Of a DNA stretch of 64,000 nucleotides, positions 1,921 to 37,660 are shown piece by piece; position 1 is the stretch's first letter, and each line of letters starts with the position of its first letter. Source of the stretch: a virus (taxonomy: Duplodnaviria > Caudoviricetes); IMG/VR virus record IMGVR_UViG_3300027891_000004, positions 1 to 64,000 of that record; one strand, written 5' to 3'. A program made the position numbers and the translations under genes. The notes under the pieces are model-generated. The model saw only the letters and a list, made by a program, of their open reading frames with translations, searched no databases and had not been told where the DNA came from.

Positions 1921-2304
1921 ATGAGTGGTTTTGCGGACATATCGGTGTTTGAAGGTTTGCAACGTAATGCTAACAATGCGATGGGGTTTACGGGCGACGT
2001 TTTTACGAACGTTGACAATTTTAGTTCTGGCGGAGCTTCGGCGTTGACACGCAAATTCAAAGAAAAAGATTTAGAAGCGTCGCAAGAAAAAGATACGGAA
2101 CTTAAAAAGAAATTAGATGCGGAAGCTCTTGCCCTAAAAGAACGACGAGATGGAAGAACAAATCAGGGCATACAAAGAGCAAAGAAAAAAGAGGAAGAAA
2201 AACAAAAAGAGCGAGAGAAGGAAAATTCGTTTGGCAATCTTGTAGAGGACATAATGGTGCCACCTAACAAAAAGCATGATTACTATGGCGAAAAACTATC
2301 CTAA
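1921..2304 (+). CDS. Leader-tagged protein (ADISVFEGLQ family), charged coiled-coil payload
   Basis: MSGFADISVFEGLQRNANNAMG matches the N-termini at 25900, 11322 and 37367; GGAGA RBS; TGATATAAT extended -10 at about 1859-1867. Confidence 0.8.
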   Translation: MSGFADISVFEGLQRNANNAMGFTGDVFTNVDNFSSGGASALTRKFKEKDLEASQEKDTELKKKLDAEALALKERRDGRTNQGIQRAKKKEEEKQKEREKENSFGNLVEDIMVPPNKKHDYYGEKLS

Positions 2305-2583
2305 GATGTAATCATCGTTTTCGTACAAAGCGTCGCCATCCAAATGGGACATATCTCTAAAAAGCGAGTTTATATCCAATAAACGCATTTTAAATACGTA
2401 GTCAGACGGATCGTATTTCTCTGTTTTTTCTTCAAGCAGCCTTGCATAACTATTTTTTAGTTCTGCTATCGTCTGCTTGATTCGTTTACGTAAATCCTTT
2501 TGGATGTATTTACGAATTTCGTATTGTGGCTTCTTTCGGTAAGAAGGCTTTTCAACAAGTGCCGCATGGAAATTTGGTCGCAT
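2296..2583 (-). CDS. Hypothetical protein
   Basis: 95-aa ORF with GGAGA RBS. Confidence 0.65.
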   Translation of the reverse strand: MRPNFHAALVEKPSYRKKPQYEIRKYIQKDLRKRIKQTIAELKNSYARLLEEKTEKYDPSDYVFKMRLLDINSLFRDMSHLDGDALYENDDYILG

Positions 2584-2609
2584 ATTTTATATCTCCGCGT
2601 GAAGACGTT

Positions 2610-2909
2610 TTATCCCGTATAAACGTTTTTAATTCGGGTAGGCAGACTTTCAATAGTATCAAACAGGTTATGGAGATCAGAATCTCTCATTTTAAGAGTC
2701 ATGCCGTTAAACTTTGGGAATTCGAGCATCAAGTTGCTTGTTTTCCCCAAAGAAAAAAGATTTTTCTGTAGTTTGGGGTATTTGCGGAGTGCGAATATCA
2801 TAACTTCGATATGAAGTGGCAACACTTCAATTTTTTGACGGAGTTCATCTGCTCTCTTTTTTGCGTGATCCGCGAGGTTCTTCCCCATTATTTTTTCTAA
2901 ATCGTCCAT
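2610..2909 (-). CDS. Hypothetical protein
   Basis: ORF; ATG at 2909 (MDDLEK) with AGGTG upstream. Confidence 0.6.
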   Translation of the reverse strand: MDDLEKIMGKNLADHAKKRADELRQKIEVLPLHIEVMIFALRKYPKLQKNLFSLGKTSNLMLEFPKFNGMTLKMRDSDLHNLFDTIESLPTRIKNVYTG

Positions 2910-3008
2910 TTTGCACCTGTTCGTATTATTAGACGTGACATCGCAGACCAATTATGCCGAAATAGACGGCGAAATTCAACTGGGTGTTAAATTTCTCCTT
3001 GTACTCTT

Positions 3009-3218
3009 TTATCGGCCGGTAAGCGTAAACAAACTCTCTCGGGCAAACGAAAAATCGGGAGCCCCTTCCAGTTCGACGGAAATATGGCTTGATTTCGGCC
3101 ATGCAGAGTCTGTCAAGGATCGTTGATAAACGGCGATATTGGCCAGAAGCATTTCTTTCTCTTGTGGAGATATTTCCGCTACCCCGAGCTTACCGGCGTT
3201 GCGGGAGACGAGCGGCAA
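3009..3218 (-). CDS. Hypothetical protein
   Basis: 69-aa ORF with AAGGA upstream, co-oriented with neighbours. Confidence 0.4.
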   Translation of the reverse strand: MPLVSRNAGKLGVAEISPQEKEMLLANIAVYQRSLTDSAWPKSSHISVELEGAPDFSFARESLFTLTGR

Positions 3219-3627
3219 ATCCTTTCGGGTTAGGGGGCATGAAAACCGCCTATTTTACTTAATCCCCCCAAATGCGCAATAGAGGTTTTATGCACCCGGC
3301 CTATGGGTACGAAGCCTATGCCATAAGTGCCGGGCCATCGCAGTTCCCAAGAGTTCGTACGAGATGGCAGCCGTTGTCCCGAATCCGACGTAGTAATATG
3401 TCCGTAATAAGAAGGTGTCCAAGAGAAATATCACAATTTTACAGGTATTTTATGCTGCTGGCAATTCCCATATTTTTCAAAAAACGCCTCAATTTTGTAT
3501 TGACAGAACTTGAAAGGCTTCTTTAAATACATTAGAATCCGACGTAGAATACGTTGTGCCAAGCAAACGTCTCGTCCCAAAATTAAAGTCTGACAGGGCA
3601 GCAACAGTTAAAGTGAGGTTTCCAATA

Positions 3628-4092
3628 ATGGGCAAGCAGAGGACGGGAGATTTGATCTACTTGACACAATCCGAGGCGGATCGGCTAATCGCAATGGAAA
3701 AGCATTACCAGGGGAACAATCCCCACGATTTTCCGACAGGCGGAAAAGAGTTGCGTATTCCTCTCGTTTCCGGTGATCGTCGGCACGAATTTGATCTGGA
3801 CATTAACAGCAAGCGGTTCAACGTCAAAAAATATACGTTCGGCAACCGAACGCAGAATACCATTGTGCTTGTCCGCGTCGATCTCCTTGAAGGCGGCAGG
3901 CATGTTAATCCTGACAATAGAGAAATTGAAGGCCCGCATATCCACCGGTACCGTGAAGGATTCGGCGACATGTGGGCCGAACCGTTACCAAGCGAGTTCG
4001 GAGACCCGAATGATATTTTCGAGGTTTTTCAACGTTTTATGGACTACTGCTCCATTACGACAAAACCAGTATTTTCACAGCCGTTTTTTTGA
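3628..4092 (+). CDS. DUF6978-family prophage protein
   Basis: LTQSEADRLIAMEK...LVRVDL.GGRHVNPD..EI.GPHIH.YREGFGD.WA...FMDYC signature; TTGACA at 3500 upstream. Confidence 0.8.
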   Translation: MGKQRTGDLIYLTQSEADRLIAMEKHYQGNNPHDFPTGGKELRIPLVSGDRRHEFDLDINSKRFNVKKYTFGNRTQNTIVLVRVDLLEGGRHVNPDNREIEGPHIHRYREGFGDMWAEPLPSEFGDPNDIFEVFQRFMDYCSITTKPVFSQPFF

Positions 4093-4096
4093 TACC

Positions 4097-4870
4097 ATGA
4101 CTAACATTGATGAAATCAAAACGTTAAATGAGCAGTATTTTAATTGGCTCCGGGACAAAACGGTCTTACGTGAAGTTGGCGACAACTGGACGGAAATCAC
4201 AACGCCGTTTTTGGACAGGCACAACGATTGCTTGCAAATCTACGTCAAACCTGAAAAAAATAATGTCTCTCTGACCGACGATGGTTATATTGTCAGCGAC
4301 CTACGGATGTATGGCTGCGATATTGATTCACCCAAAAGGAAATCCATCTTGCAAGAGATGCTAAACGGTTTTGGGATCAAGCTCGTCGAGGGGCGACTAG
4401 AAGCACACGGCAACCGAAAAGAGTTTCCCCAACTCAAGCACAATCTTGTCCAAGCGATGCTTTCGGTGGACGATATGTTTTATCTGTCGTCCCCTCACGT
4501 TGCCAGCCTGTTTTCCGACGATGCGGCATCTTGGCTGGACGCGTCCGAGATACGGTTTACGCCAAAAATCAAATTTGTAGGAAAATCCGGCTTTTCCTAT
4601 AATTTCTTTGCTGCCATTCCGAAGTCCACCAAGTCACCGGAACGAATTGTGCAGCCAATCAATAATCCCGACAAGAATTCAGTCCAGCGGTTGATTTTTG
4701 AATGGGACGATATAAAAGAAACGCGTTGGCCCGGTTCTGTAATCTATCCTATTCTTAATGACTCGAAATCGCCGATCAATTCGACGATCCTTTTGGCCCT
4801 TGAAAAGTATGGAATCAACGGCATCCTCTGGTCGGAACGTGAAAAATATAAGAATTTGCTCGCATCGTAA
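4097..4870 (+). CDS. DUF1828/DUF1829 domain protein
   Basis: Y..WLRDKT...WTEITTPFLDRHNDCLQIYV...LTDDGY...KHNLVQAMLSVDDMF...F.GKSG...W.D signature; ATG at 4097 directly after the DUF6978 gene. Confidence 0.85.
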   Translation: MTNIDEIKTLNEQYFNWLRDKTVLREVGDNWTEITTPFLDRHNDCLQIYVKPEKNNVSLTDDGYIVSDLRMYGCDIDSPKRKSILQEMLNGFGIKLVEGRLEAHGNRKEFPQLKHNLVQAMLSVDDMFYLSSPHVASLFSDDAASWLDASEIRFTPKIKFVGKSGFSYNFFAAIPKSTKSPERIVQPINNPDKNSVQRLIFEWDDIKETRWPGSVIYPILNDSKSPINSTILLALEKYGINGILWSEREKYKNLLAS

Positions 4871-4892
4871 TGTTTCCCAAAGCATTCAACGT

Positions 4893-5165
4893 TTATTCGT
4901 TATTGAGCGTGTCCTGAATGATTGCAATGATTTGTTCTTTCGTTTTCGTTCCGGCCCATAGTTCGGCGATGGAGCCGTCATCGCGGCATAGTTGGTACGC
5001 CGGGACGGTGTAAAGAAGCGTGGACGCGCCGTCATCAAGGAGCGTGTTTACGTCAACGATTTCAAGGCGGACATCACCGTCGAAATGCGCCACAATCTCA
5101 TGGAGCATCGGGAGATGTTTTTTGCAAACAAAGCACTCGGTAGTGGCGAATTGTTTTAGAATCAT
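4893..5165 (-). CDS. Thioredoxin-like protein
   Basis: F.TTECFVCK (CxxC), VDV, TVP cis-Pro motif, W.G.KTKEQI. Confidence 0.75.
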   Translation of the reverse strand: MILKQFATTECFVCKKHLPMLHEIVAHFDGDVRLEIVDVNTLLDDGASTLLYTVPAYQLCRDDGSIAELWAGTKTKEQIIAIIQDTLNNE

Positions 5166-5218
5166 TTGTTGATCTGAGCTGGATTATCGCGGCGTCCCAA
5201 TTATGGAGCGTGCAGAAG

Positions 5219-5234
5219 CCCGCCACGTGGCGGG
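5219..5234. repeat. Dispersed palindrome copy 3
   Basis: CCCGCCACGTGGCGGG, 5 nt past the stop of 5240..5464. Confidence 0.95.
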
Positions 5235-5239
5235 ATCGT

Positions 5240-5464: not shown

Positions 5465-5537
5465 TATTTTCCTCCTTGAAAAAGTATTGAATCGAAAAAG
5501 TCGGGCCGCGTCTAATATGGGTTCGTAGAGCAGGCGT

Positions 5538-5932: not shown

Positions 5933-6382
5933 TTATCTCAAATCGTAATCTTTAATTGTGGGGTCTTGCGGGTAACTTATCTTCGCCCATTCAAGCCATT
6001 TGTTGACAAATAATACGCGGTTATCCGATACGACTTCTAAAATTTTTCCCAACTCCTTTTTAGGAACAGACGGCGAAAAATTGGCAAGCGTTACCTGATC
6101 CTTATTTGGTCCTGCCGCTGTCCAAATTTTCACCTCGCCTTCAGGCAACGTAATATGCGTATGCGGAGGTTCAAGCACGCCACCATGTTGTATTTCGTTT
6201 GAACCAATTCCGAAATTCTTACCGCGATATTTAGGAGTCCCCTTGAAAATAGGCGACATATTAAACGCCGCCATCTCCGATACGCCACTGGTCCGTTCGA
6301 GCAGCGTTTGGAAATCGACCCCGGCCCCTTCGGTGCTCCCGGCCGTCCCCGCCATCTCATTGAAGCTATTGTACGTTTGCAT
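5933..6382 (-). CDS. DUF4160-family toxin-like protein with 41-aa N-terminal leader (pair 2)
   Basis: MSP...SNE...EPPHTHI....GEVKIW...EL.KI.EVV..N...F..KW; leader MQTYNSFNEM...SEMAAFN. Confidence 0.75.
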   Translation of the reverse strand: MQTYNSFNEMAGTAGSTEGAGVDFQTLLERTSGVSEMAAFNMSPIFKGTPKYRGKNFGIGSNEIQHGGVLEPPHTHITLPEGEVKIWTAAGPNKDQVTLANFSPSVPKKELGKILEVVSDNRVLFVNKWLEWAKISYPQDPTIKDYDLR

Positions 6383-6386
6383 TATA

Positions 6387-6869
6387 TTATTTATTGATTT
6401 CGTTCCAGTATTCAAAATCTAAAAGCCGGTCGCTTAACCACGGCTCCTTTCCGTTTGCGATTTGTGTATCGTTATACTTTTTTAGACGGTCCAGTTCTTT
6501 TGTAGTAAAGCCTAAAAATGTATTAGGGGCGGGGTTTTCTAGCCATTCAATACCAATGTAAATTTCTAATAAAGGCCAAAGTACCGTATCGTACATCACG
6601 CGAACATGTTTTATTTCTTCTGGCGTTGTTCCTAAAAAATGAGGATACTGATCGAATGACACAAAAAAATCTTTTTTACAATCTTCCCAGTTTTTTTTAA
6701 TAAAAAATTCTTTAGAAAAAATAGTTATCCAAAATCCATTTTGTAAAATGGAAAAAACTTCGGCACTCTGTTCAGTTGTCAGGCTGGGCTGAATCGGGTC
6801 GTTGATAAATTCGACCTCGCTTTTGTTTTCGGTTGCTTTCTTGACTGCTTTTGGGCACATGTTTGTCAT
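6387..6869 (-). CDS. DUF2442-family putative antitoxin (pair 1)
   Basis: AEV..I..NGFWI...FFVSFDQYPHF...T.EEI.HV...VLWP.L.I.IG.E.LENP. Confidence 0.75.
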   Translation of the reverse strand: MTNMCPKAVKKATENKSEVEFINDPIQPSLTTEQSAEVFSILQNGFWITIFSKEFFIKKNWEDCKKDFFVSFDQYPHFLGTTPEEIKHVRVMYDTVLWPLLEIYIGIEWLENPAPNTFLGFTTKELDRLKKYNDTQIANGKEPWLSDRLLDFEYWNEINK

Positions 6870-7281
6870 CGTATTGTCCCTTTTGTTGGGCGAAAGAAGG
6901 TATAGTTGATTTGTATTGCTGAATAAATGTTTCTTGATTGGGGACAATGTGTTTTATAGCCTGGGTTAATTCGTCGTTTCGCATATTTCCATTATCTTTA
7001 ACGGAGATGTTTGGGGTGAGCCAAAATTCTGCGTTTTTATTGCCCGGTGCGTTTACATGGACATGCGGTCGAGGTCCCTCTGTTGGCCAAATAAAAAATT
7101 CGTACCCCTCTACTTTTTTTACCGGAAATAAAGGGGGCGACATATTGAACATCGCCATCTCCGAAAGCAAAGGAGCGGAAGTGCCGCCGGTCCGTTCGAG
7201 CAACGTTTGAAAATCGACCCCGGCTCCTTCGGAGCTTCCGGTCGTCCCCAACATCTCATTGAAGCTATTGTACGTTTGCAT
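6772..7281 (-). CDS. DUF4160-family toxin-like protein with 46-aa N-terminal leader (pair 1)
   Basis: MSP...EGYEFFIW..E.PRPHVHV....NAEFWL.P.I.V..N......EL..A.K.I; leader almost identical to that at 6382. Confidence 0.8.
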   Translation of the reverse strand: MQTYNSFNEMLGTTGSSEGAGVDFQTLLERTGGTSAPLLSEMAMFNMSPPLFPVKKVEGYEFFIWPTEGPRPHVHVNAPGNKNAEFWLTPNISVKDNGNMRNDELTQAIKHIVPNQETFIQQYKSTIPSFAQQKGQYDDKHVPKSSQESNRKQKRGRIYQRPDSAQPDN

Positions 7282-7348
7282 TGTACTAAAATCAAAACGG
7301 CAAAAAGAATACAAACAAAACGGCATTGTAGCATTCCGTACCGAATTG

Positions 7349-9394
7349 TCAATCATTTCGGCGTTTGCAGAACAAGTCGATCATACTCAAAATGTACTTT
7401 TCCGTATCTGTGCCGACGCCTTTCCAACCCTTATGGCCCCGTTTCGAGAGGTAGTTTTTCAACTGTCCAACTGTTTTTATGTGGTGTCCGTACTTTATGT
7501 AGTATGCCCATTTACTTTCGTTTTTGTTTAACAACTTTTCGCCAACGGCGCACCGAAACCATGTCATTTTGCATCGCTTTTGTATCGACTTGCTTTTTTC
7601 GTCTTTTTCTATGAGCCATAAGTGGAAGTCGTCAACGGACATTGTTTCGGGATCGGGCCGTTGTTTTTTTGGTAATTTTGCTTTTGGTGCCAGATCAGGG
7701 GCTATGGATGCTATCAATTCGGGCGTAATTGGTTTCGGTTTGAAATTAGGCGTAGGCTCATTTGGAACCGTAGCGGGTGGCGTCGTTTCCTGGCCCGCCT
7801 TTGCTTCGCATACGGGAGTTACGGGCGTTTCCGGTTCTTTTGGGTAAAAGAACTTTTCCTTTTGTCCGGTCTTTTCATCACGGAGACTGACCGTGATACC
7901 TCGGCAAACGTACGCCATGTATTGCAGAGAATACTTCAGTGCGTCGTAGCCCATCACGCCGTCTGGGAATATTTCTGGATCGGGCGTGATAGTTATTTGA
8001 GTACCGCATTTTTCGGTCTTTTTCAAAACAGACACGGGGCCTACGGGAATTCCGCGTTTGCATATCAGCCGCATAACCTGCCCGTTATTGTGCACATCGA
8101 CGATGCACCGTTTGGCGATCAAATTGAACCGTCGAACGAGGTACAAATCGTTAGGCACCAAATGTTGGCTTTCTTTGAACGTGCCTTTGAAATAATACGG
8201 GTATTTTTCGATAGGCAAACAATGCCTATCGTTTGCAAACGTGACGGTGCCGTCTTTTTTGATCGCTACGATTATTACCGATACGTTTTTCTTTAGTTCG
8301 ATAAAATAGGTGCGGACAATATCGTGGATACGTTTTTCTGATGGCGTCATTTCTGTTTCTTTTGTTAGGGGTTCGGTTATTGTTTGTTCCGGTTCGTCCG
8401 GTTCGTTCGATTCTGACGTAGGCGAGATTGCGTGCAGGACGAGTTTGCACATTTGTTGGGTCCAATCGTAGGCGGGAGCCAACCCGTGAATTCGTTTTAT
8501 CCTTTTCGCTTCATTCACGACGCTGACGAGAACATCATCGTGTGAGGCTTCCCTGTCGCGTCTGGCCAACTCATAAAAAGTTTCCCACCGTTCTAGGCAA
8601 TTTTGTATTTCGTTTTGAAACGGCGTACAATCGTCGTGTGCTACTGTGGGCTTGATGGACGTATCTGGCGTTGTTTCCGCTCGTGTTACGAGGCCTCGCT
8701 CCGTTTCCTGTCGTTCCTCTGTTTCTTCCGTGGTTATTTCTTCTTTTTCGATTTGTTTCATGGCTTCTTTTACCAATGGCTGATTTTTGTTGCATTCTTT
8801 CCGATCTGTGCGCCTTGAGCATTCGATATTTTTTGCAATAATCTCATCGGTCCGGTCTTTGATATTTTCCAATTCTTTTTCGGAAGCGTTTTTTGCACGA
8901 ACACCAAGATCGGCCTCTGCTTTTGCGAGCGCGTTATCGACATGTTCGATAGATAGTGTGCCGTCAATAATCTGTCGTTGGAGGTCAAGAGAAGCATATT
9001 TTCTGATCCTTACTCCACGTTCTATATGCCGCCAACTTACGCCTGATATTTTGGACGCCGACTTGCTCGTTACTTTGTATCCGCCTTTTTTTCGTAACAG
9101 ATAGTAATCGACAGCGAGCAACGTCAACTGCGAAGGCGTCATGTGATGCCTATACCTGTTATTTTGTATTGCGAATCCCAGCGGATCGTCGCCCAGATAA
9201 TCATTGTACGCGGGGTAGGCACCGACTCGTGCGGCCGCGAGGTATCTGTCGTACCCGTCCAATATCCGGCCCTCGTACATAATAATCACGGGGGGACACC
9301 CGGCTTTGATCTCGTTGACGCGAGCTTCAATGTCGGTATCATCCGGCATAGGCAGCATCGCGGCGTATTCGTGTAGTTCTGGTTTTGTTGACAT
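7349..9394 (-). CDS. ParB-like N-terminal domain protein fused to a degenerate GyrB ATPase fragment
   Basis: N-terminal LHEYA..LP.P...I.MYEGRILDG..RY.AA...DPL.F....N..RHHMT.SQ plus HTH; ~7841-8350 reads ...DGTVT..ND...LP.E...YKRG-like CKRG.P...GT.IT..PDPEIF...L..L.Y...GI.V.L.DE.T...FFYP. Confidence 0.75.
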   Translation of the reverse strand: MSTKPELHEYAAMLPMPDDTDIEARVNEIKAGCPPVIIMYEGRILDGYDRYLAAARVGAYPAYNDYLGDDPLGFAIQNNRYRHHMTPSQLTLLAVDYYLLRKKGGYKVTSKSASKISGVSWRHIERGVRIRKYASLDLQRQIIDGTLSIEHVDNALAKAEADLGVRAKNASEKELENIKDRTDEIIAKNIECSRRTDRKECNKNQPLVKEAMKQIEKEEITTEETEERQETERGLVTRAETTPDTSIKPTVAHDDCTPFQNEIQNCLERWETFYELARRDREASHDDVLVSVVNEAKRIKRIHGLAPAYDWTQQMCKLVLHAISPTSESNEPDEPEQTITEPLTKETEMTPSEKRIHDIVRTYFIELKKNVSVIIVAIKKDGTVTFANDRHCLPIEKYPYYFKGTFKESQHLVPNDLYLVRRFNLIAKRCIVDVHNNGQVMRLICKRGIPVGPVSVLKKTEKCGTQITITPDPEIFPDGVMGYDALKYSLQYMAYVCRGITVSLRDEKTGQKEKFFYPKEPETPVTPVCEAKAGQETTPPATVPNEPTPNFKPKPITPELIASIAPDLAPKAKLPKKQRPDPETMSVDDFHLWLIEKDEKSKSIQKRCKMTWFRCAVGEKLLNKNESKWAYYIKYGHHIKTVGQLKNYLSKRGHKGWKGVGTDTEKYILSMIDLFCKRRND

Positions 9395-10896: not shown

Positions 10897-11322
10897 CTAA
10901 TTACGATCCAACCACTCCCCTGTTTCCGATTTTGCTATGATGTTGTAATCTTTTTGTGGCCTATCTCTTTCTTTTTTATAATGGTCCATTAGCGGAATAA
11001 ACTGCCGTTGGTAATCCTGTTCTATTTCTTTTATTCTGCGATTTTTTGCATCCGAAGACGGGGAGGCGTTTAATTTTGTTAGCTCTATCATCCTCGCATA
11101 ATTAAGCGCGGACATCGCCGCTTCCGTTTCATTGATATTCTCAAGCCGATCCCGTACAACGGACGGCGGCACATCTTCGATTTTCACCTCGTTACCCCTT
11201 TCCCAGAAGGTGGCGTTATCCACATGCGCTGCGTTAAACGGTTGCATAACCGACATGCCCATTCGGGCATGGGCACCGTTTTGTAGATTTTCAAACATTC
11301 CAATATCAGCGAGCTTTTCCAT
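10897..11322 (-). CDS. Leader-tagged protein (ADIGMFENLQ variant), helical payload
   Basis: MEKLADIGMFENLQNGAHARMGMSVMQPFN aligns with MQKLADISVFEGLQRGAHAQMNIPSEMSVFN (25900). Confidence 0.8.
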   Translation of the reverse strand: MEKLADIGMFENLQNGAHARMGMSVMQPFNAAHVDNATFWERGNEVKIEDVPPSVVRDRLENINETEAAMSALNYARMIELTKLNASPSSDAKNRRIKEIEQDYQRQFIPLMDHYKKERDRPQKDYNIIAKSETGEWLDRN

Positions 11323-11349: not shown

Positions 11350-11403
11350 GTAGTATCCTACGTAGCATCCTACAAAAACGTAGCACCCTACGTAGCATCC
11401 TAC
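11350..11403. repeat. Four 12-bp dyad units GTAGyAyCCTAC, operator or arm-site-like
   Basis: Units at 11350, 11362, 11380 and 11392. Confidence 0.8.
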
Positions 11404-11406
11404 AAA

Positions 11407-11430
11407 AAAGCCCGCCACGTGGCGGGCTTT
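11407..11430 (-). terminator. Dispersed palindrome copy 4, positioned as terminator of the fibre/lysis operon
   Basis: AAAGCCCGCCACGTGGCGGGCTTT; T6 follows the stem on the minus strand; 17 nt past stop 11448. Confidence 0.8.
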
Positions 11431-24289: not shown

Positions 24290-25549
24290 TTAAGTGAATT
24301 TAAACTTGACCGGCGTTACGCCCGCTATGTCGTTACTCAACAAACCGTTGTACGTCACGCCGCCAATGACTGCGCTAATGGGCGTCCAAGCAGTATAGGG
24401 AAACGTTCCGGTACCGTCCCAAGCTGTAATTGTGCCCCAGGCAGTTCCTTTGACCAAAATAAAGCCGCGAACGCCGACATTGACCCACGTTGCGAACGGG
24501 ACCGGCGGCGATGGTTGAATCGCGTTCCAATCCGTTACGTTTGCATCTACTGTAAGATCAAGCGTGCGCACGGAACCAGTGATTTCGGTTGTCCCTGTAA
24601 ACGCTACGGCTGCGTCGCCGTCGAACGACGGGAACGTAGGAACCAACGGGGTTGCCGTTGAATCCGGGTACCATATACCCATCCAACCTGTCGGGACCGG
24701 CGGGGGCGGCGTTTTGGTAAACGTGAAACTAACCGGCTTGGTAGTTACGTTTGTTTTGGTAATCGTAACCTGATACGTACCGGCCGTCGTGAGCGGGGCG
24801 GATACTTCAAACGTGAGCGGCCCAGTCTGTGTTACGGACGTGGGGACAATGCCGCCGGAAATACTAATCTCGGAAAGCGCAAGCGGTCCCAAAATAGGGG
24901 CGAGCGGGTTTTCGATGAACGTAATAAGAATCCCGGTCGGGTCGAGCGACGTGGGGATAGGCGTAACGGAAAACTTTGAGATCGGGACGACGGGCGCACT
25001 TTTCTTACGGGACCCGATACGGACCCTGAGCAGGTTGACGATTGCACCGTTCAGGTTCGGGTCACGCTGCGGCATATCCCGCGTAGAGGCGTCCACCAAA
25101 TCGACCATATCCGGGGTACATTCAAAGTTTTCCTGCGCCCAACCGATAAACTTCCCCTCGCCTTCACGCGATACGTAGATACCGTTCGGGGTTTGTGTTG
25201 CGTATACCGGCTGCCCGAATTTATAGGTATCGGGCACGCACCGCAACAGGTAGAGGTCGCCGGAAACGACCCGGCGGCAAAGTATCTGCTCGCCATCGTA
25301 AGAAGCGGCATTGATCCCCTTACCGAGCAACGCATTTTCGAGGATCACTATTGTCTCGAAACCTTCGATATTTGTGGCTTCGGAATGGACGGTGTTGACG
25401 ATGTGTTTCTGCTCGGCGTCGGTCATAGCGACGATAGAACCGGGCAGGCAAAGACCCTGCGGGTTGGACGGCGTAGACGCCTGCAAGACAAACTCTTCGT
25501 AAACGCCCTTGCGTACATTCAATTCGATCCTGTTTGCATCTTTTTGCAT
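24290..25549 (-). CDS. Head decoration/cement-like protein with C-terminal extension; first gene of operon
   Basis: N.IEL...EE...PG.IV...LENAL.GKGI.A...GEQI......GD; AAGGAGG RBS. Confidence 0.6.
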   Translation of the reverse strand: MQKDANRIELNVRKGVYEEFVLQASTPSNPQGLCLPGSIVAMTDAEQKHIVNTVHSEATNIEGFETIVILENALLGKGINAASYDGEQILCRRVVSGDLYLLRCVPDTYKFGQPVYATQTPNGIYVSREGEGKFIGWAQENFECTPDMVDLVDASTRDMPQRDPNLNGAIVNLLRVRIGSRKKSAPVVPISKFSVTPIPTSLDPTGILITFIENPLAPILGPLALSEISISGGIVPTSVTQTGPLTFEVSAPLTTAGTYQVTITKTNVTTKPVSFTFTKTPPPPVPTGWMGIWYPDSTATPLVPTFPSFDGDAAVAFTGTTEITGSVRTLDLTVDANVTDWNAIQPSPPVPFATWVNVGVRGFILVKGTAWGTITAWDGTGTFPYTAWTPISAVIGGVTYNGLLSNDIAGVTPVKFKFT

Positions 25550-25660: not shown

Positions 25661-25845
25661 TAGTATACCATAAAAGTTTGCTACTGTGTAAAAACCGCGC
25701 ACTAGAGAATTTTTTTCATAAACTTGAGGTTTATGATACACGCGATCCCGCCACGTGGCGGGATCAGGCGTTTGTTTTTCGTTGGTTTGTAGAAAAATTC
25801 TCTAGTGCGCCCGATTTCCAAAGTTTGCGGATTTATGGTATAATG
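25661..25845. promoter_or_regulatory. Divergent promoter pair with 18-bp inverted boxes around palindrome copy 5
   Basis: GCGCACTAGAGAATTTTT (25697-25714) and AAAAATTCTCTAGTGCGC (25793-25810), each followed 25-26 nt later by TGGTATA(A/C)T. Confidence 0.75.
25744..25765. repeat. Dispersed palindrome copy 5 (22-bp form)
   Basis: GATCCCGCCACGTGGCGGGATC. Confidence 0.95.
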
Positions 25846-25899: not shown

Positions 25900-26451
25900 A
25901 TGCAGAAATTAGCCGACATTAGTGTTTTCGAGGGGCTTCAACGCGGCGCGCACGCACAAATGAACATTCCAAGCGAAATGTCTGTTTTTAACGATTACAG
26001 CGAAGCGGAAAAACAAGAGCGCACCGCAAGAATAGAGCAAGAGATAGAAGATATAAAACGGGAAACAAATAAATTATACTATGATGCTCGAAATGCGAGG
26101 CAACAAATGGAAGCCGAAAAGAAAGCGGCATTCTCCGAATTGGGCGCGGTTGCGCAACGGGCTGGATGGGACGAGAACCAAAAGCAGGATTATTGGCGAA
26201 AATACGATGAAATACTGTTACAAGAACACGAGGAAAAATACTTTTGGGCTAACAAAGAAATGAAAGATAGAGCAGATGCGCTTAGAGGCCGCGTAAAAGA
26301 GATACGAGGAAACGACCCTGATGGCCGTTTTGCGATTCCTTGCTTTGCTATTGAGGACAAACTAGACAAATTCGAGATGCAAATAAAATCGACAATGAGC
26401 AAGAAACCAGTAGAAAGAAAGACGCTTAGTAATATGTCGGCGTTTCAATAG
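25900..26451 (+). CDS. Leader-tagged protein, coiled-coil payload
   Basis: MQKLADISVFEGLQRGAHAQMNIPSEMSVFN; the C-terminus also ends SNMSAFQ. Confidence 0.85.
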   Translation: MQKLADISVFEGLQRGAHAQMNIPSEMSVFNDYSEAEKQERTARIEQEIEDIKRETNKLYYDARNARQQMEAEKKAAFSELGAVAQRAGWDENQKQDYWRKYDEILLQEHEEKYFWANKEMKDRADALRGRVKEIRGNDPDGRFAIPCFAIEDKLDKFEMQIKSTMSKKPVERKTLSNMSAFQ

Positions 26452-26758
26452 CCCCTTTTGCAATGCCCGTGCCGCTAAGCAGCCCGTCAAAATAGGCCAC
26501 GTAGTGCATCGAAAAGAATAAAAAATTTAAGTCACTTTTGTGACTTGCCTGATTATGTTCCCAATTGTTGTATCGAGATATTGTATCTTTCCAAAAAACG
26601 GTGCGTTCGTTATGGCTTTTCAAATGACCAACGTCGCGTTGTTCGTATTTCAAGCCTTCTTGCAATTTTCGGCGCCATATCTCCCTTTGCTCTGCGCGGG
26701 TATGGCAATTGTAGACCGCCTTCGTTTTCAAAGCGGTTTCAATAAAATCGGTAGTCAT
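26426..26758 (-). CDS. Hypothetical protein
   Basis: ATG 26758 with AGGAAGG RBS. Confidence 0.6.
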   Translation of the reverse strand: MTTDFIETALKTKAVYNCHTRAEQREIWRRKLQEGLKYEQRDVGHLKSHNERTVFWKDTISRYNNWEHNQASHKSDLNFLFFSMHYVAYFDGLLSGTGIAKGAIETPTYY

Positions 26759-26779
26759 TTGACAGCCTTCCTGTAAAAT

Positions 26780-26795
26780 CCCGCCACGTGGCGGG
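26780..26795. repeat. Dispersed palindrome copy 6
   Basis: CCCGCCACGTGGCGGG, 13 nt past the rpsF stop, followed by ATTTT on the minus strand. Confidence 0.95.
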
Positions 26796-26808
26796 ATCGT
26801 GTGCGGCA

Positions 26809-27237
26809 TCAATCGGATTCCGTATCTCTGTTTTTATATTTCTCTTCCAATTCTTTCATAAGCGGGTCGTTATCCAGGTCGATTTTCTCATCGTCCTCTT
26901 GCGGAGTCGGCTTGTGTTTTTTCGCATGATCGACAAGCGTATCGACCAATTTTGGATCTATTACGATAAACAAGTACCGGAGCACGCACGCCTCGTTTTG
27001 GAACAGGTCCGATACCGCCTTGATCCGTTCGGGATCGCACCGAAAATAGGAAAGCCAGTAAATAGCTCGCAAATGGCCGGGAACTCCGTAATTCAAAGTA
27101 CGTTCGTTCCATAGCGAGCTGTGAAGCATCTCGCCGCCCTCCCGCCCGACCATTTCGGCAAGACGTCCCGAAACGGCGTCCGGATTCTCGTCGTACATCG
27201 ATGCGTCGAGCACAAATAGCCCTTCATAAACGTTCAT
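26809..27237 (-). CDS. rpsF: 30S ribosomal protein bS6, planctomycete type, phage-encoded
   Basis: NVYEGLF.LD...Y..NP..VSG...EM....GGEML.S.LW.ER.L.Y...G.....YWL.YF.........LRYLF...DP.LVD.LV.HA plus acidic tail. Confidence 0.85.
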   Translation of the reverse strand: MNVYEGLFVLDASMYDENPDAVSGRLAEMVGREGGEMLHSSLWNERTLNYGVPGHLRAIYWLSYFRCDPERIKAVSDLFQNEACVLRYLFIVIDPKLVDTLVDHAKKHKPTPQEDDEKIDLDNDPLMKELEEKYKNRDTESD

Positions 27238-34495: not shown

Positions 34496-34697
34496 TATGT
34501 GTCTCCCTTAGTTTAATGTATTCTTCTGCCAGTTCCCGTGTATCAAAATCGGCGACCCAACAATCGATCCCATCATCGTCACTTTTATACACACCCCAGA
34601 GTTCCGCTTCGTCATCGTTGTCAACAGAATCATAAACGATACTGTGTTCGTCGGCATGAACGATCTTTGCTCCTCTACATCGGAATTGTTTACTCAT
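34461..34697 (-). CDS. Hypothetical protein
   Basis: ATG 34697 with AAGGAGG RBS. Confidence 0.65.
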   Translation of the reverse strand: MSKQFRCRGAKIVHADEHSIVYDSVDNDDEAELWGVYKSDDDGIDCWVADFDTRELAEEYIKLRETHNEHRASMLPTV

Positions 34698-34876
34698 TGC
34701 TTGTCCTCCTTCCATTTCTCTTCGACCCATCGGACAGCTTTTCCGAGTGTTGGGTGGCGTTTAGGTTTTTTTTTTGTTCCACGCTTCAAACGGAAAATCT
34801 TGCGGCTCATCTCGCTCAACAAGGCCAATACACTCACCATCTTTAAGCACTCTCCACTTAACAGGAATTGTTTCAA
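34694..34876 (-). CDS. Small basic hypothetical protein
   Basis: Fills the operon gap. Confidence 0.4.
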   Translation of the reverse strand: MKQFLLSGECLKMVSVLALLSEMSRKIFRLKRGTKKKPKRHPTLGKAVRWVEEKWKEDKQ

Positions 34877-34879
34877 TCG

Positions 34880-35236
34880 TCATTTTGCCTCCTTTACAGG
34901 TGTTAAATCATCAAGAGTACAGACGTTAGTATCGTCTAACGTTTCCACAAAATCTTCGGCATCAAAGGCTACGTATTTACCATTGCGTTTTGTCCACGCT
35001 AGTTCATCTGCAACGTCCATCGGTTCTTTTGAACAGATGAAATAAGATTCGCCTTCATCGAGAACGTATGCTACATACGCAACTGTCCAATCGACGTCAA
35101 CGACGTACTCAACCACAAACTGCTTGCTCTTGGAGTTACAAAACTCCTCGAACTTCTCTTTAATAGAGGTTTCAGTGTAAGCATCGTAATCGTCGTAACC
35201 TTCGGGATCAGTTGTTTCAACTAGAAATAGTTTCAT
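34880..35236 (-). CDS. Acidic hypothetical protein
   Basis: AAGGAG RBS; D/E-rich. Confidence 0.7.
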   Translation of the reverse strand: MKLFLVETTDPEGYDDYDAYTETSIKEKFEEFCNSKSKQFVVEYVVDVDWTVAYVAYVLDEGESYFICSKEPMDVADELAWTKRNGKYVAFDAEDFVETLDDTNVCTLDDLTPVKEAK

Positions 35237-35293
35237 TATTCAGTCTCCTTGTTAGCATAACTTTCTTTGAATTTCTCCCATTCAATGTTGAGC

Positions 35294-35629
35294 TTAACTC
35301 TCATTGACAAACCCCTCACTTTCTAACAGTGCTAAAATTGCTTGATTATATTCATTGTGAAAGCCACATGCCCGACCGCCAGGAATATCTCTGCACAACT
35401 CGCCAAGTTTTTTACCACGTTTTGTCAATTGAAATCCAACCGATGTGTTGGTAACTAACCCATTATTTACGGCTCCTTGTAAATGATTCATAAACCCCAA
35501 AGTAGAACCAAAATATCTTGTCCCGTATCCTCCTTCGACAAGATCACGGCATATCGCCGCGTGACGAAAACTAATCCCTTCAATATCATAGGGCGTAGCT
35601 GGCGTATATTTTGGTTTCTTCTTTTTCAT
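35294..35629 (-). CDS. Hypothetical protein, winged-helix-like
   Basis: NGLVT.....QLTKRGK.L. Confidence 0.65.
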   Translation of the reverse strand: MKKKKPKYTPATPYDIEGISFRHAAICRDLVEGGYGTRYFGSTLGFMNHLQGAVNNGLVTNTSVGFQLTKRGKKLGELCRDIPGGRACGFHNEYNQAILALLESEGFVNES

Positions 35630-35817
35630 TGTTTTGTAGGCTAAAGCGTAGCGAATGGTAGGCTAAGAGCAGAAGGTGTTAAAATCAGCCACTATCTTTC
35701 ACCATTGCTATTCAAACGGCCTGCCCCGGCAAACGGGTAATTCACACGTGGTCTCTCGCATCCACCTCTTAGTGCAACTTGGGCCCACCAAACGCTACAT
35801 GTTTATCGTAATTCCTC

Positions 35818-35994
35818 TCACTTTTTCAGCAGTGCTCTTATGGCTTCTTGTAAACCATCAATAATCTCAGACTTGTTGACAAGTTCTGCTGCCAGGATGT
35901 CAACGATTGTTTCCAAACTAACATCGCCTTCGTGCTCTGGGCATTCGTAATCATAGCTGCGGCGTGCCCAATCAATCCAATCATTTTTCGTCAT
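35818..35994 (-). CDS. Small hypothetical protein (58 aa), not in ORF track
   Basis: MTKNDWIDWARRSYDYECPEH...EAIRALLKK, starts 3 nt after the upstream stop. Confidence 0.6.
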   Translation of the reverse strand: MTKNDWIDWARRSYDYECPEHEGDVSLETIVDILAAELVNKSEIIDGLQEAIRALLKK

Positions 35995-35997
35995 AAT

Positions 35998-36303
35998 TTA
36001 TCCGTCCGTTTCAACAAGTTCAAATTCTTTTCTTTTACGTTTTAGAAAATAACGTTTCCGCAACCGAGACAACGCTACCTTTGGATCAGGGTGAAAGCAT
36101 ATCTCGTGTAAAGCTGGCGGTTTTATATCTTCCTCATCAGGTGGACACTGCGCGGGTAGCTTAAACTCTTTAACCACCGCAACCAAGCTAGAAATCCTGG
36201 CCAACGTTCTGGTACTCTCCTCATCAATGTACCAGCGCATGCCCAACAAAGTCGCTAACTCGGCCACAAAGCCGGATACAAGCAATGCAATGAACGTAAA
36301 CAT
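35998..36303 (-). CDS. Membrane-anchored hypothetical protein
   Basis: AGGAG RBS; N-terminal TM. Confidence 0.65.
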   Translation of the reverse strand: MFTFIALLVSGFVAELATLLGMRWYIDEESTRTLARISSLVAVVKEFKLPAQCPPDEEDIKPPALHEICFHPDPKVALSRLRKRYFLKRKRKEFELVETDG

Positions 36304-36489
36304 GTGGGTCTCCTACGTAAATGGAATTTTTGTAATCATGGCGCTAATGTAGGCAAACTGAAAATGAAAAGTAGCGTTGGTGAATTCGTTTGTAGTTTTT
36401 ATATGGCGATTTTGAACCGTTTGTTGAACACTAAAATTATTTTGATAACACCGTTTCTCAAATAGATTCACAATGTGATACTCCCGCGT

Positions 36490-37158
36490 CTAAAGCCGTG
36501 GGATTTCCCACACGTTTGTCTTAAAAGTTTCAACTCGCATCCGTGCCTCGGCGATTCCGGCGGTTCCATTTTCTTTACCGTATGGGGTATGAAACGCGAT
36601 GCCGTCTAAAAATTCAATCGTCTTTTCAAGGTATTCGTCCCACCCAGTATACCGAAAACATTCGGAACGAATCCCAACTAAACAACCGAACAACGTATCA
36701 TTACAATACTGCATCATATCCGCGTCAAGAAGACACATGCGGTCGGCGGTTAAACATTCCAATTCATGCGGGTATTCCGTTGCCAAAATCAAATTCGCCA
36801 CCATATCAACATGGTAAGCATCGGGCGATATGTAAGGCTCTCGTTTCCTCTCGTTGTGAAAATGAAAATATCGGAACGCATCCGCCGCAATTTCAACATT
36901 TTTACCATCTGGGAACAAACCGCCGGAATGCCCAAAATCATGGAAAAGGGCTGCGAGCAAAACATGGACTGGGCATTCTTTTTCAAATCCCCATCGCCAC
37001 GAGTCCCAACATTTCTCGGCGTAAAACATAACGTAAAGCGAATGTTGGAGGTTATGGTACGGTAAAGCCTGCGAAGGATTGTTTTCCAGTATCCAACGGA
37101 CAACTGGGCCTAGTTGGTACTTTTCGATCAGTTGTAGAACGCTATCCGGAAATGACAT
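36490..37158 (-). CDS. HD-domain phosphohydrolase
   Basis: PYHNLQH...LLAALFHDFGHSG...D..NV..A...I.ATEYP...DADMMQ. Confidence 0.85.
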   Translation of the reverse strand: MSFPDSVLQLIEKYQLGPVVRWILENNPSQALPYHNLQHSLYVMFYAEKCWDSWRWGFEKECPVHVLLAALFHDFGHSGGLFPDGKNVEIAADAFRYFHFHNERKREPYISPDAYHVDMVANLILATEYPHELECLTADRMCLLDADMMQYCNDTLFGCLVGIRSECFRYTGWDEYLEKTIEFLDGIAFHTPYGKENGTAGIAEARMRVETFKTNVWEIPRL

Positions 37159-37179
37159 TATTTTGATGATAGAACGGCA

Positions 37180-37222
37180 GAAGTAGGCATATCGGCATGT
37201 AATACGCCGATATGCCTACTTC
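37180..37222. repeat. 17-bp perfect inverted repeat upstream of the HD gene
   Basis: GAAGTAGGCATATCGGC-ATGTAATAC-GCCGATATGCCTACTTC. Confidence 0.85.
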
Positions 37223-37267
37223 CGACGAAAACGCAAGAAAAATATCGGGATGATGCTAAGTCTACGA

Positions 37268-37320
37268 AAAAATTCTCTAGTGCGCCCGATTCCCAAAGTT
37301 TACTGATTTATGATATAAAT
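37268..37320 (+). promoter_or_regulatory. Third copy of the AAAAATTCTCTAGTGCGC promoter box
   Basis: Near-identical to 25793-25845, with TGATATAAAT 25 nt after the box. Confidence 0.75.
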
Positions 37321-37366
37321 CAGCGAAGGTTTTATTTCATTCGTAAACCTTATCCACAAAATTACC

Positions 37367-37660
37367 ATGCAAAAGTTAGCAGATATCTTCACGTTTTCGA
37401 GGGCCTACCCCGCCACGTGGCGGGGTTTCAACGTTTGCCGCCGCAACAGCCGACCAAGTGAGTGTAGACGGGCGACGAAACGGGCGGCCCGTTGTACGTC
37501 GAGTTGGCCACCGGCATTTTATCATAAACAGGCGGACTATGTTGCATCTGGGTATGGAAAAATTCCTTCTTCCGGAAGCTACCGCAGGTACGGCATTGTG
37601 CTATGTCAAGCCCAAGATTACATTTGGCGGTCTCCGCCATTCGGAAGTGTAGGCACGGTC
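37367..37660 (+). pseudogene. Degraded leader-family gene (frameshift plus palindrome insertion); 3' end approximate
   Basis: MQKLADI, then a frameshift, then GTT TTC GAG GGC CT (VFEGL), a 21-nt palindrome, and CAA CGT (QR); early stop. Confidence 0.7.
37407..37426. repeat. Dispersed palindrome copy 7
   Basis: ACCCCGCCACGTGGCGGGGT. Confidence 0.95.

Follow-up and report, generated by a model that had tools for sequence, protein, structure and literature searches.

A bipartite N-terminal leader shared by unrelated proteins of a large uncultured phage: a candidate head-targeting propeptide

Results

The window analysed here, the first 64,000 nucleotides of IMG/VR record IMGVR_UViG_3300027891_000004, belongs to the 167,820-bp (168-kb) complete genome of an uncultured phage whose host is probably a member of the Planctomycetes; we looked for a cultured relative of the phage and found none. 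Three genes of the window carry a cargo behind a shared N-terminal leader (1921, 10897, and 25900, named here by their lowest coordinate), one locus retains a decayed promoter-leader stub (37367), and three genes have a variant leader (5933, 6772, and 61938) (Table 1). A first-pass annotation of this DNA had recognized four dispersed genes with the leader. The leader itself is real, and translation bears it out for 1921, 10897-11322, and 25900, but four was an undercount, with 19 intact type-A leader genes in the complete genome, and 37367 is only a stub. The 177-aa open reading frame at 37367 is spurious: the promoter and about 37 nt of leader are kept, but 2 nt have been inserted when compared with the paralogue at genome position 126904, and unrelated DNA follows.

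Table 1. Leader genes and associated features of the window
Feature	Position	Strand	Remarks
Extended -10 box (TATGATATAAT) of 1921 gene	1857..1867	+	
Leader-tagged gene, 127 aa	1921..2304	+	Leader residues 1-30 (1921-2010), variant second motif V-F-T-N; cargo Lys/Glu-rich
DUF4160 gene, variant leader	5933..6415	-	Y-N-S-F-N-E-M ... S-E-M-A-A-F-N; probable ATG 6382
DUF4160 gene, variant leader	6772..7356	-	Leader ends S-E-M-A-M-F-N; probable ATG 7281
Leader-tagged gene, 141 aa	10897..11322	-	Leader residues 1-30 (11233-11322), end M-Q-P-F-N
Upstream region of 10897 gene	11350..11429	-	Terminator-like palindromic hairpin followed by two ~28-nt direct repeats
Divergent promoter of minus-strand structural operon (24290-25549 and onward)	25662..25712	-	16-nt AAATTCTCTAGTGCGC, 28 nt, TATACT with upstream TGG
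Palindrome CCCGCCACGTGGCGGG, perfect core	25749..25760		One of eight window copies
Promoter cassette of 25900 gene	25795..25844	+	16-nt AAATTCTCTAGTGCGC, 28 nt, extended -10
Leader-tagged gene, 183 aa	25900..26451	+	Leader residues 1-31 (25900-25992)
Convergent partner gene of 25900	26426..26812	-	3' end overlaps 25900 by 26 nt; probable start 26758
Promoter cassette copy before 37367 stub	37270..37319	+	16-nt element and extended -10
Leader stub, not a gene	37367..37403	+	About first 12 codons (~37 nt), 2-nt insertion, then palindromic hairpin
Variant-leader gene	61938..62450	-	V-V-N-S-F-S-E-L ... N-A-S-F-Q

In the three translations, the leader starts at residue 1 with a first motif A-D-I-(S/G)-x-F-E-x-L-Q and closes with a second motif, V-F-T-N in 1921, Q-P-F-N in 10897, and S-V-F-N in 25900, which ends at residues 30, 30, and 31, respectively. 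The Q-P-F-N end of the 10897 leader had already been read in the first pass, as had the S-N-M-S-A-F-Q that ends the 25900 protein (encoded at 26428-26448), and both are seen in the translations. The proposed SEMxxFN link between leader groups also stands, with S-E-M-A-A-F-N and S-E-M-A-M-F-N located directly before the DUF4160 domains of 5933-6415 and 6772-7356 and S-V-F-N in the second motif of 25900.

The cargos of 1921, 10897, and 25900 are unrelated, as had been claimed, with zero BLASTP similarity among them at E<=0.01. Relatives of the 1921 gene (P0056, P0067, and L135) have the same leader with other tails, the 10897 cargo has relatives in P0035 and P0101, and family matches of the 25900 cargo are weak and limited to coiled coil. 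Beyond the window, true payload paralogues exist in two groups, one uniting 25900 with 98203, 126904, and 87522 and the other comprising 81294, 83261, and 114185, so that full-length paralogy holds for 25900 against three genes outside the window and not among the window genes. Since 25900 and 126904 have in common the promoter, leader, cargo (46% identity), and convergent partner gene, the whole two-gene cassette was duplicated; paralogues of this partner gene adjoin three other cassette copies. The earlier idea of promoter-plus-leader shuffling thus fits the cargo-less 37367 stub but not this pair. In the relative L112 the cassette lies beside a different neighbor gene, and together with the one stub this suggests that the cassette may be mobile.

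The consensus leader, about 30 residues long, reads M-x-K-L-A-D-I-S-x-F-E-x-L-Q, a spacer, and S-x-M-S-V-F-N. Its two half-sites resemble each other: A-D-I-S-x-F-E spans residues 5-11 and S-x-M-S-V-F-N about residues 25-31, with the conserved linker L-Q-x-x-A-N/H-x-x-M-G between them. Among 148 leader-bearing database proteins, A5 and E11 are invariant and I7, S8, F10, L13, Q14, F29, and N30 are each at least 90% conserved, against a mean column identity of 7% over the whole alignment. The positions preceding F-N are S (113/143), M or L, S/A/G, and V (123/143); the residue following the Asn is small or acidic, and conservation is absent past it, so that identity falls from more than 90% in the conserved columns to the background level over a single position. 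Within the first 60 residues of the encoded proteins, the second-motif pattern was counted 18 times, compared with 1.8 +/- 1.3 times in shuffles, and across the 19 genomic copies the invariant residues are encoded by all of their synonymous codons (Ala 4, Leu 5, Ser 6), including both Ser and both Leu codon families. By these sequence measures, the leader is under selection at the protein level.

Searching public metagenomes with a leader profile (E<=1e-3) recovered 334 further protein clusters, nearly all matching from residue 1, and distant copies preserve the peptide and not the DNA. The shuffle excess, the full synonymous codon use, and these 334 clusters indicate that the leader pattern is not due to chance. 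The phage genome holds, besides its 19 intact type-A genes, two further stubs, one frameshifted copy, and at least eight variant-leader genes sharing the second motif; the intact and variant-leader genes together make about 27 tagged genes. Leader genes are also numerous in relatives, with at least 13 copies in 15 kb of L143 and eight genes each in L145 and L146 within 10 kb of the protease-scaffold gene, and some also occur in replication or early-looking regions (144337 and 158724; L102 and L118). Searches of Pfam, PHROG, and NCBIfam gave zero matches for the leader proteins. The domains found behind the leader are unrelated (sigma factor, DUF4160, coiled coils), and tandem double leaders are present in P0006, P0094, and P0122, the first of which is an ECF sigma factor. 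Most cargos lack known domains.

Plus-strand leader genes are preceded by sigma-70-like extended -10 promoters. As noted in the first pass, such boxes (TGRTATAA) occur at three of the four loci, 53-66 nt upstream of 1921, 25900, and 37367, and a promoter stretch of about 60 nt is common to 25900 and 37367; none was found upstream of 10897 (11350..11429). There are only seven TGRTATAA boxes genome-wide, and five of them precede plus-strand leader genes or the stub. The 16-nt element AAATTCTCTAGTGCGC, part of a promoter unit with three plus-strand occurrences, lies exactly 28 nt upstream of the -10 hexamer in four structural-operon promoters and in three plus-strand leader cassettes. The palindrome CCCGCCACGTGGCGGG has 18 copies, 11 of them within 500 nt of the end of a leader gene (P ~2e-4). 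Besides the copy at 25749, the window has copies at 1536, 1612, 5221, 11413, 26782, 37411, and 62519; the two-gene cassette of 25900 lies between the 25749 and 26782 copies. Independent transcription, also proposed earlier, applies to the plus-strand genes, but most members outside the window are arranged in tandem downstream of the protease-scaffold gene.

A predicted prohead protease, for which the first-pass annotation had suggested a search, was located as a domain fused to the scaffold in a 564-aa protein (genome 85184-86878, minus strand; 47 homologues found). This protein matches DUF2213/Pa193_gp24 (PF09979) at 32.2 bits (cut-off 22) and the PHROG family "head maturation protease". A model of its protease domain (residues 1-200, pLDDT 83) best matches T4 gp21 (5jbl; Foldseek probability 1.0; Z 12.1 over 141 residues, rmsd 3.4), followed by herpesvirus proteases at Z ~8, and a low-confidence model of the C-terminal part is all-helical. 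H41, S133, and D162 are invariant, and H163 is almost invariant; from the fold, family labels, and conserved His/Ser, the phage-encoded protease is predicted to be catalytically active. The domain ends in a conserved L-L-I-N followed by a disordered linker, which fits self-cleavage after Asn and makes L-L-I-N a possible self-cleavage site in this model.

The leader genes at genome 78-85 kb are on the same strand as the protease-scaffold gene and immediately downstream of it, and others flank the capsid gene. In related phages, scaffolds P0160, P0161, P0163, and P0164 end in L-S-V-F and have V-F-N about 55 residues before the end, and the P0163 scaffold shares one 101-kb contig with leader genes. 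The scaffold of the phage itself has no V-F-N near its end, the only similar stretch being V-T-S-F-N-E-A-L at residue 342, not conserved in homologues, and a clear F-N site was not found in the capsid protein, which has only V-S-I-T-N near its N-terminus. The capsid protein marginally matches the encapsulin family Linocin_M18 (24.8 bits, cut-off 24.3). Four proteins of the genome end in M-(S/A)-A-F-Q.

Discussion

We think it probable that the leader is a bipartite propeptide that targets proteins to the capsid and that the prohead protease removes. As the prohead assembles, the leader would attach either to the scaffold/protease core or to the inside of the capsid shell, carrying its cargo in; the gp21-fold N-terminal domain of the 564-aa protein would cut after the Asn of F-N, possibly with a second cut after Glu-11; and the freed cargo would remain in the head and be delivered with the DNA into the next host. 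Conservation breaks off sharply after Asn and the next residue is small or acidic, as expected of a cleavage junction, and the cargo types, toxin-family DUF4160 domains and the ECF sigma factor of P0006, suit delivery. A shared, removable leader tied to head assembly, as the first reading of this DNA proposed, is thus supported, if indirectly, by the gp21-fold protease-scaffold, gene adjacency, the promoter element, F-N in scaffolds, and the stop of conservation after F-N. Less easily reconciled with the propeptide reading are the scaffold of this phage, without V-F-N near its end, the capsid protein, without a clear F-N site, the leader genes in replication or early-looking regions, and the sigma-70-like promoters of the plus-strand leader genes. 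The M-S-A-F-Q copies directly before a stop codon cannot be cleavage sites, which argues for the motif being at least partly a binding element. For the 25900 family, conservation of this C-terminal motif is ambiguous, because the stretch overlaps the partner gene on the opposite strand.

Such binding could also be all that the leader does. As a docking tag, its F-E and F-N half-sites would copy the scaffold tail and attach to the inner capsid or scaffold without being cut. The L-S-V-F ends of related scaffolds, the M-(S/A)-A-F-Q ends, the tandem double leaders, and a capsid protein just above the encapsulin cut-off are all compatible with this, as is the fragment of DUF2213-family Pa193 gp24 that remains bound under capsid vertices (PMC11456595). 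We nevertheless find it unlikely, given the abrupt end of conservation at Asn with a small or acidic residue next, the gp21-fold protease fused to the scaffold, and the likelihood that a sigma factor or toxin would need an N-terminal extension removed to function.

Somewhat less likely still, the leader could act in the cell without being packaged, either as a pro-sequence that keeps effectors inactive until a protease removes it or as a chaperone, adaptor, or degradation site that times activity. The toxin-family DUF4160 cargos, the partner genes that adjoin some cargos, and the dispersal of leader genes in non-structural regions, several with their own sigma-70-like promoters, would fit such a handle. 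It does not account for the clustering of leader genes near the capsid gene and immediately behind the protease-scaffold gene, seen also in L145 and L146, for the promoter element common to structural operons, or for the motif in scaffold proteins, and no Prp-type protease was found in the genome.

We regard as improbable an ordinary paralogue family, in which the N-terminus is a small functional domain (directed, for example, at a single host target) with fast-evolving C-termini unrelated to the virion. The two groups of payload paralogues and the many cargos without a known domain are in line with it, but the leader precedes unrelated domains, its column identity collapses within one residue, and leader-only stubs and double leaders exist. 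That the conserved unit is DNA or RNA, such as a recombination site or translation signal, is very improbable in spite of the promoter and palindrome repeats flanking several cassettes, as it is contradicted by the use of every synonymous codon at invariant residues across the 19 copies and by distant metagenomic copies that keep the peptide and not the DNA.

We tentatively raise the possibility that a lineage of large Planctomycetes-associated phages has general protein delivery, in which the product of any gene that gains the tag would be loaded and injected. More than one-tenth of the genes would carry it, toxins among them and, in one relative, a sigma factor. With the tag copying the capsid- or protease-binding tail of the scaffold (M/L-S-V-F), one motif would be both address and cut site. 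If so, this would be a new portable packaging tag and a new protease specificity with Asn at P1 and Phe at P2.

If the tag truly loads the head, no phage would be known to deliver more proteins from its head than the roughly 27 encoded per genome here, and more than 334 distinct cargo clusters are tagged in metagenomes. These cargos, mostly of unknown function, would likely work within the first seconds after infection begins, countering defences, shutting off the host, or taking over transcription. A gp21-fold protease would then have a new recognition motif, foreign proteins could be loaded into capsids with a short tag of defined sequence, and hundreds of orphan phage proteins could be annotated by a simple rule. 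Given the sharp F-N junction and the scaffold tails, three recombinant genes would be enough for a direct test of the idea.

Comparison with known systems

A Prp-cleaved, L27-like leader, as on the capsid and scaffold proteins of Staphylococcus phage 80alpha, was considered and rejected, since no match to the Prp protease family (PF04327) was found in the genome of the phage; an L27 tag, with its F-A end, would also differ from the leader motif here. In encapsulin cargo-loading peptides and the capsid-binding tails of scaffolds, a short linear motif docks cargo inside an HK97-fold shell. The leader may likewise dock to the capsid, and related scaffolds carry its motif at their C-terminal end. 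The tags of encapsulin cargo are mostly found at the C-terminus, are rich in Gly and Ser, and are not cleaved.

The capsid-targeting sequence (CTS) of T4 IPI-III and Alt, processed by gp21 (PMC9026906, PMC3012670), is likewise a short conserved N-terminal tag on unrelated, fast-evolving small proteins. In IPIII, the N-terminal 10 residues are enough to direct the protein to the head, and gp21 cuts them off (PMC9026906); the first half-site here is comparable, with about 11 residues and a Glu at its end, and this phage also encodes a gp21-fold protease, as judged from fold and conserved His/Ser. T4 Alt is processed at its C-terminus too (PMC9026906), which the C-terminal motif on some members recalls. 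No sequence similarity to the T4 tag or internal proteins was found, and the leader is three times longer, bipartite, and ends in a conserved S-V-F-N rather than L/I-x-E. Moreover, the protease here is fused to the scaffold (DUF2213 family), and about 27 genes per genome are tagged, compared with a handful in T4.

Phages phiKZ, 201phi2-1, and SPN3US also have many processed head-internal proteins with more than one site per propeptide (PMC9026906, PMC10052503), and the several sites of phiKZ propeptides are redundant (PMC9026906). In these phages, cleavage follows the Glu of S/A-x-E, one leader common to all the proteins is lacking, and the protease is not of the DUF2213 type. The N-terminal packaging signal of P1 DarB is similar in length (about 30 residues) and sufficient in P1 to load a reporter into the capsid, but it was shown on one protein rather than across a family, and a cleavage motif of the F-N kind is not described for it (PMC9024508). 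The genetic arrangement partly resembles the PeSL promoter/stem-loop cassettes, through which modules are shuffled in T4-type phages (PMC2839356, PMC4122927): in both, a repeated promoter and a repeated GC-rich hairpin flank small variable genes, and one promoter-only stub is left here (37270-37403). The sequences differ, and the repeat here extends into the coding leader.

A two-motif leader on otherwise unrelated proteins

Translation bears out the first-pass annotation in that the genes at 1921, 10897 (read from 11322 on the minus strand) and 25900 open with a common leader, M-x-K-L-A-D-I-(S/G)-x-F-E-x-L-Q followed by a short linker and a second motif that closes with F-N at residue 30 or 31 (V-F-T-N in the 1921 gene), and in that the 25900 protein has a related motif at its C-terminal end. 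The cargos behind these leaders are unrelated, as was also claimed: BLASTP similarity among them is absent. None has a significant Pfam, PHROG or NCBIfam match, and a word-based homologue search with the 25900 cargo returned only its own paralogue. Both half-sites are alike, as suspected (small, acidic/variable, aliphatic, Ser, x, Phe, Glu or Asn), and the proposed SEMxxFN link to the leaders of the DUF4160 genes holds for the second motif, though the first motif differs. The supposed pseudogene at 37367 is a genuine leader remnant, but the ORF there is no gene: DNA alignment with its paralogues shows the common promoter, ~37 nt of leader sequence into which 2 nt have been inserted, and then unrelated DNA opening in a GC-rich palindrome.

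The leader genes first described as four dispersed genes are real but were undercounted, with 19 intact copies found genome-wide by regex and then profile search, besides stubs and a frameshifted copy (see table). At least eight further genes, at 5933, 6772, 61938, 72055, 72870, 80773, 94994 and a short ORF at 161874, have a variant first motif and keep the second. Within the first 60 residues of the predicted proteins the second-motif pattern is met 18 times, vs 1.8 ± 1.3 times in shuffled proteins. Across the 19 copies, every synonymous codon is in use for the invariant residues (Ala, Asp, Phe, Glu, Leu) as well as for the predominant Ser, which argues that selection acts on the leader peptide and rules out conservation at the DNA level.

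A profile built from 18 leaders (A1) and run against 1.84 billion representative proteins retrieved 334 (E<=1e-3); of the 150 listed, nearly all align from residue 1. An alignment of 148 of these proteins has A5 and E11 as invariant positions and at least 90% conservation at I7, S8, F10, L13, Q14, F29 and N30, whereas its mean column identity over the full length is 7%. The junction in 143 proteins reads S (113), x, M/L (125), S/A/G (134), V (123), F, N, after which come one small or acidic residue and then no conservation; the distance between the two motifs is 23-25 residues in 81% of cases. The leader itself has no model in Pfam, PHROG or NCBIfam, and almost all cargos lack a Pfam domain, the exceptions being one DUF4160 protein and P0006, a metagenomic protein (L147:475-1251) in which Pfam finds regions 2 and 4 of an ECF-type sigma factor after two tandem leaders, making it a candidate virion-delivered sigma factor. 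The leader protein P0005 has nothing beyond the leader in common with the 258-aa leader protein adjoining the protease gene of contig region L145.

Coordinates of leader genes, partner genes and repeated DNA elements
Feature	Position	Strand	Remark
Leader gene	1921-2304	+	second motif V-F-T-N
Leader gene	10897-11322	-	leader from residue 1
Leader gene	25900-26451	+	leader from residue 1; C-terminal end S-N-M-S-A-F-Q
DUF4160 gene	5933-6415	-	other first motif; S-E-M-A-x-F-N directly before domain
DUF4160 gene	6772-7356	-	other first motif; S-E-M-A-x-F-N directly before domain
Short leader stubs	37367, 99486		profile/regex search
Frameshifted leader copy	116912		profile/regex search
Extended -10 box	before 1921, 25900, 37367, 87522, 126904	+	5 of 7 boxes
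AAATTCTCTAGTGCGC	25697-25712	-	promoter of tail-fibre-like operon
AAATTCTCTAGTGCGC	87376	-	promoter of protease-scaffold operon
AAATTCTCTAGTGCGC	97726	-	promoter of capsid operon
AAATTCTCTAGTGCGC	101412	-	promoter of further operon
AAATTCTCTAGTGCGC	112070	-	additional site, listed among the 7-8 promoters
AAATTCTCTAGTGCGC	25795-25810	+	leader cassette (25900)
AAATTCTCTAGTGCGC	37270-37285	+	leader cassette (stub 37367)
AAATTCTCTAGTGCGC	126807	+	leader cassette (126904)
Convergent partner gene of 25900	26426-26812	-	no Pfam/NCBIfam match
Convergent partner gene	97881-98228	+	no Pfam/NCBIfam match
Convergent partner gene	127460-127783	-	no Pfam/NCBIfam match
Convergent partner gene	87989-88387	-	no Pfam/NCBIfam match
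CCCGCCACGTGGCGGG 12-nt cores	1536, 1612, 5221, 11413, 25749, 26782, 37411, 62519		window copies

Promoters, duplicated cassettes and a repeated palindrome

Of seven copies of the extended -10 box T-R-TG-R-TATAA-W in the genome, five stand 53-66 nt before plus-strand leader genes or the stub, and a promoter unit of ~60 nt is common to 25900, 37367 and 126904. The first-pass annotation had seen such a box at three of its four genes and a cassette shared by two, which agrees with the boxes before 1921, 25900 and 37367 and the unit at the latter two. No box of this kind precedes the 10897 gene, which comes after a terminator hairpin and a pair of ~28-nt direct repeats. These repeats (TTTTTGTAGGATGCTACGTAGG...; 11350-11405, minus strand), placed between terminator and gene, have ends resembling the -10 (GGTATACTAC) of minus-strand structural promoters.

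At 7-8 extended -10 promoters, two of them a divergent pair at 25.7 kb, the -10 hexamer is preceded at a distance of exactly 28 nt by a 16-nt element, AAATTCTCTAGTGCGC. Since it is common to structural operons and leader cassettes, it suggests that the cassettes are co-regulated with the structural genes, and an activator of structural-gene transcription probably binds to it.

The cargo of 25900 recurs in 98203, 126904 and, more distantly, 87522 (82%, 46% and ~35% local identity), and the convergent partner genes are paralogous and overlap the 25900-type leader genes at their 3' ends by 20-67 nt. The common cargo and paralogous partners indicate that these are duplicated two-gene cassettes, which may encode cargo and inhibitor or cargo and chaperone. 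The pair is kept in L112, a metagenome fragment where it adjoins a homologue of window gene 211-732(-) (94% identical over 72 aligned residues); in the 168-kb genome that gene has no 25900-type cassette as its neighbour, so cassette position differs between close relatives. Gene 211-732(-) itself encodes a transposase-type HTH (HTH_Tnp_1). The idea of promoter-plus-leader cassette shuffling therefore survives in part: the stub at 37270-37403, a promoter and leader start without cargo, shows that the two can stay behind or move as a unit, but the 25900 family consists of duplicated two-gene units.

A perfect palindrome, CCCGCCACGTGGCGGG, which in many copies extends as far as GATC at either end, is present in 18 copies in the genome, eight of them in the window vs 0.01 expected. 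Eleven of the 18 are no more than 500 nt from a leader-gene end (20.6% expected, P ~2e-4), and the 25900 cassette is enclosed by those at 25749 and 26782. Only a few have a T-run, and so most are not plain terminators. Promoter/stem-loop (PeSL) cassettes are known from T4-type phages, and the repeated promoter and palindrome here resemble them (PMC2839356, PMC4122927); the leader cassettes may likewise be mobile.

A predicted protease-scaffold protein beside the leader genes

For the prohead protease presumed by the first-pass annotation there is a candidate in a 564-aa protein at 85184-86878(-), whose first 200 residues match the DUF2213/Pa193_gp24 and PHROG 'head maturation protease' families. 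A model of this domain (pLDDT 83) resembles most closely gp21, the prohead protease of T4 (Foldseek probability 1.0, E 9e-4; Z 12.1 over 141 residues, rmsd 3.4), followed by herpesvirus proteases at Z ~8; a sequence search of the PDB gave no match. All 36 homologues compared have H41, S133 and D162, and nearly all have H163, a pattern that would, at the level of sequence, fit the Ser-His-His triad typical of this protease superfamily. The remainder is helical and variable, as would be expected of a scaffold, and a fragment of the family member gp24 of phage Pa193 has been seen bound beneath capsid vertices (PMC11456595).

Of 47 homologues of this protein, four (P0160, P0161, P0163 and P0164) terminate with L-S-V-F and contain (A/V)-V-F-N-A-C ~55 residues before the end; P0163 shares a 101-kb contig with leader genes, and its full-length model (pLDDT 54.7) is too low in confidence to place the L-S-V-F tail relative to the protease. 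The scaffold of the 168-kb phage lacks this tail and has at residue 342 V-T-S-F-N-E-A-L, like the first motif of variant leaders and unconserved in homologues. The protease domain ends in a conserved L-L-I-N before a disordered linker, and the capsid proteins of the 168-kb phage and of contig regions L145 and L146 have V-S-I-(S/T)-N near the N-terminus, weak hints that would fit cutting after Asn.

Directly downstream of the protease-scaffold gene runs a series of minus-strand leader genes (78-85 kb), and other leader genes flank the capsid gene (91873-93024). Just upstream of the latter, a conserved protein of 408-470 aa (95278-96690(-); L145:4374-5600) without Pfam, PHROGs or NCBIfam match may be an unrecognised head component. 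Ten small head-region genes searched against PHROGs gave one gene in one family of unknown function and nothing else. A conserved small head-region protein starts with the second motif alone (99542-99841(-), M-N-S-I-F-N; L145:8822-9151, M-S-G-R-L-S-V-F-N) and has the look of a core gene fitted with a minimal leader.

Distribution and probable host

The genome is one linear virus contig of 167,820 bp from IMG/VR (CheckV completeness 94%), and the window makes up its first 64 kb. Megablast against phage records found no close cultured relatives, and the best matches of the capsid and protease genes, to Brevundimonas phages, are only 32-39% identical. In 80 IMG/VR loci with capsid relatives of at most 47% identity, no leader lies near the capsid gene, so the tag is lineage-specific. 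The sole match of a DNA-pattern scan of IMG/VR (L087) was judged a chance one. Within metagenomes, a 15-kb stretch of contig L143 bears at least 13 leader genes, and L145 and L146, head regions of 101-kb and 139-kb contigs, have eight each at no more than 10 kb from the protease-scaffold gene. Two leader proteins lie on contigs of <2 kb. All clear leader matches in GTDB species genomes are on contigs of MAGs labelled Planctomycetaceae, several adjoining homologues of genes from the 168-kb phage, and on the basis of these binning labels the host is probably a planctomycete. One leader-bearing contig, L144, also has flagellar export genes.

Proposed head targeting and cleavage

In T4, a short N-terminal propeptide of 10 residues gives affinity for the prohead core and is removed by the prohead protease gp21, which cuts after Glu in L/I-x-E; the cargo, which is highly diverse, afterwards accompanies the DNA (PMC9026906, PMC3012670). 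Propeptides of phiKZ have several redundant sites, and in T4 Alt the C-terminus is trimmed as well (PMC9026906). We lean towards this model as the best fit, with the leader targeting its cargo to the head and then being removed by the prohead protease, at a cut predicted after the Asn of F-N.

The F-E and F-N motifs may act in cutting, in docking or in both. The leader could instead serve for docking alone, binding and staying uncut. Motif copies at the extreme C-terminus, in four proteins here and four scaffolds elsewhere, cannot be cut sites and so favour a docking role; however, the C-terminal motif of the 25900 family also overlaps the partner gene on the opposite strand, and we therefore consider docking alone improbable and prefer targeting followed by cleavage. 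No Prp protease was found in the phage genome.

Our literature search returned nothing on capsid targeting in Planctomycetes phages. The leader here has 30 residues with two half-sites and is likely cut after Asn, whereas the T4 CTS has 10 residues and L/I-x-E. By sequence and site it is not a member of the CTS family; it would instead be analogous in function, with a protease of the same predicted fold acting on it.
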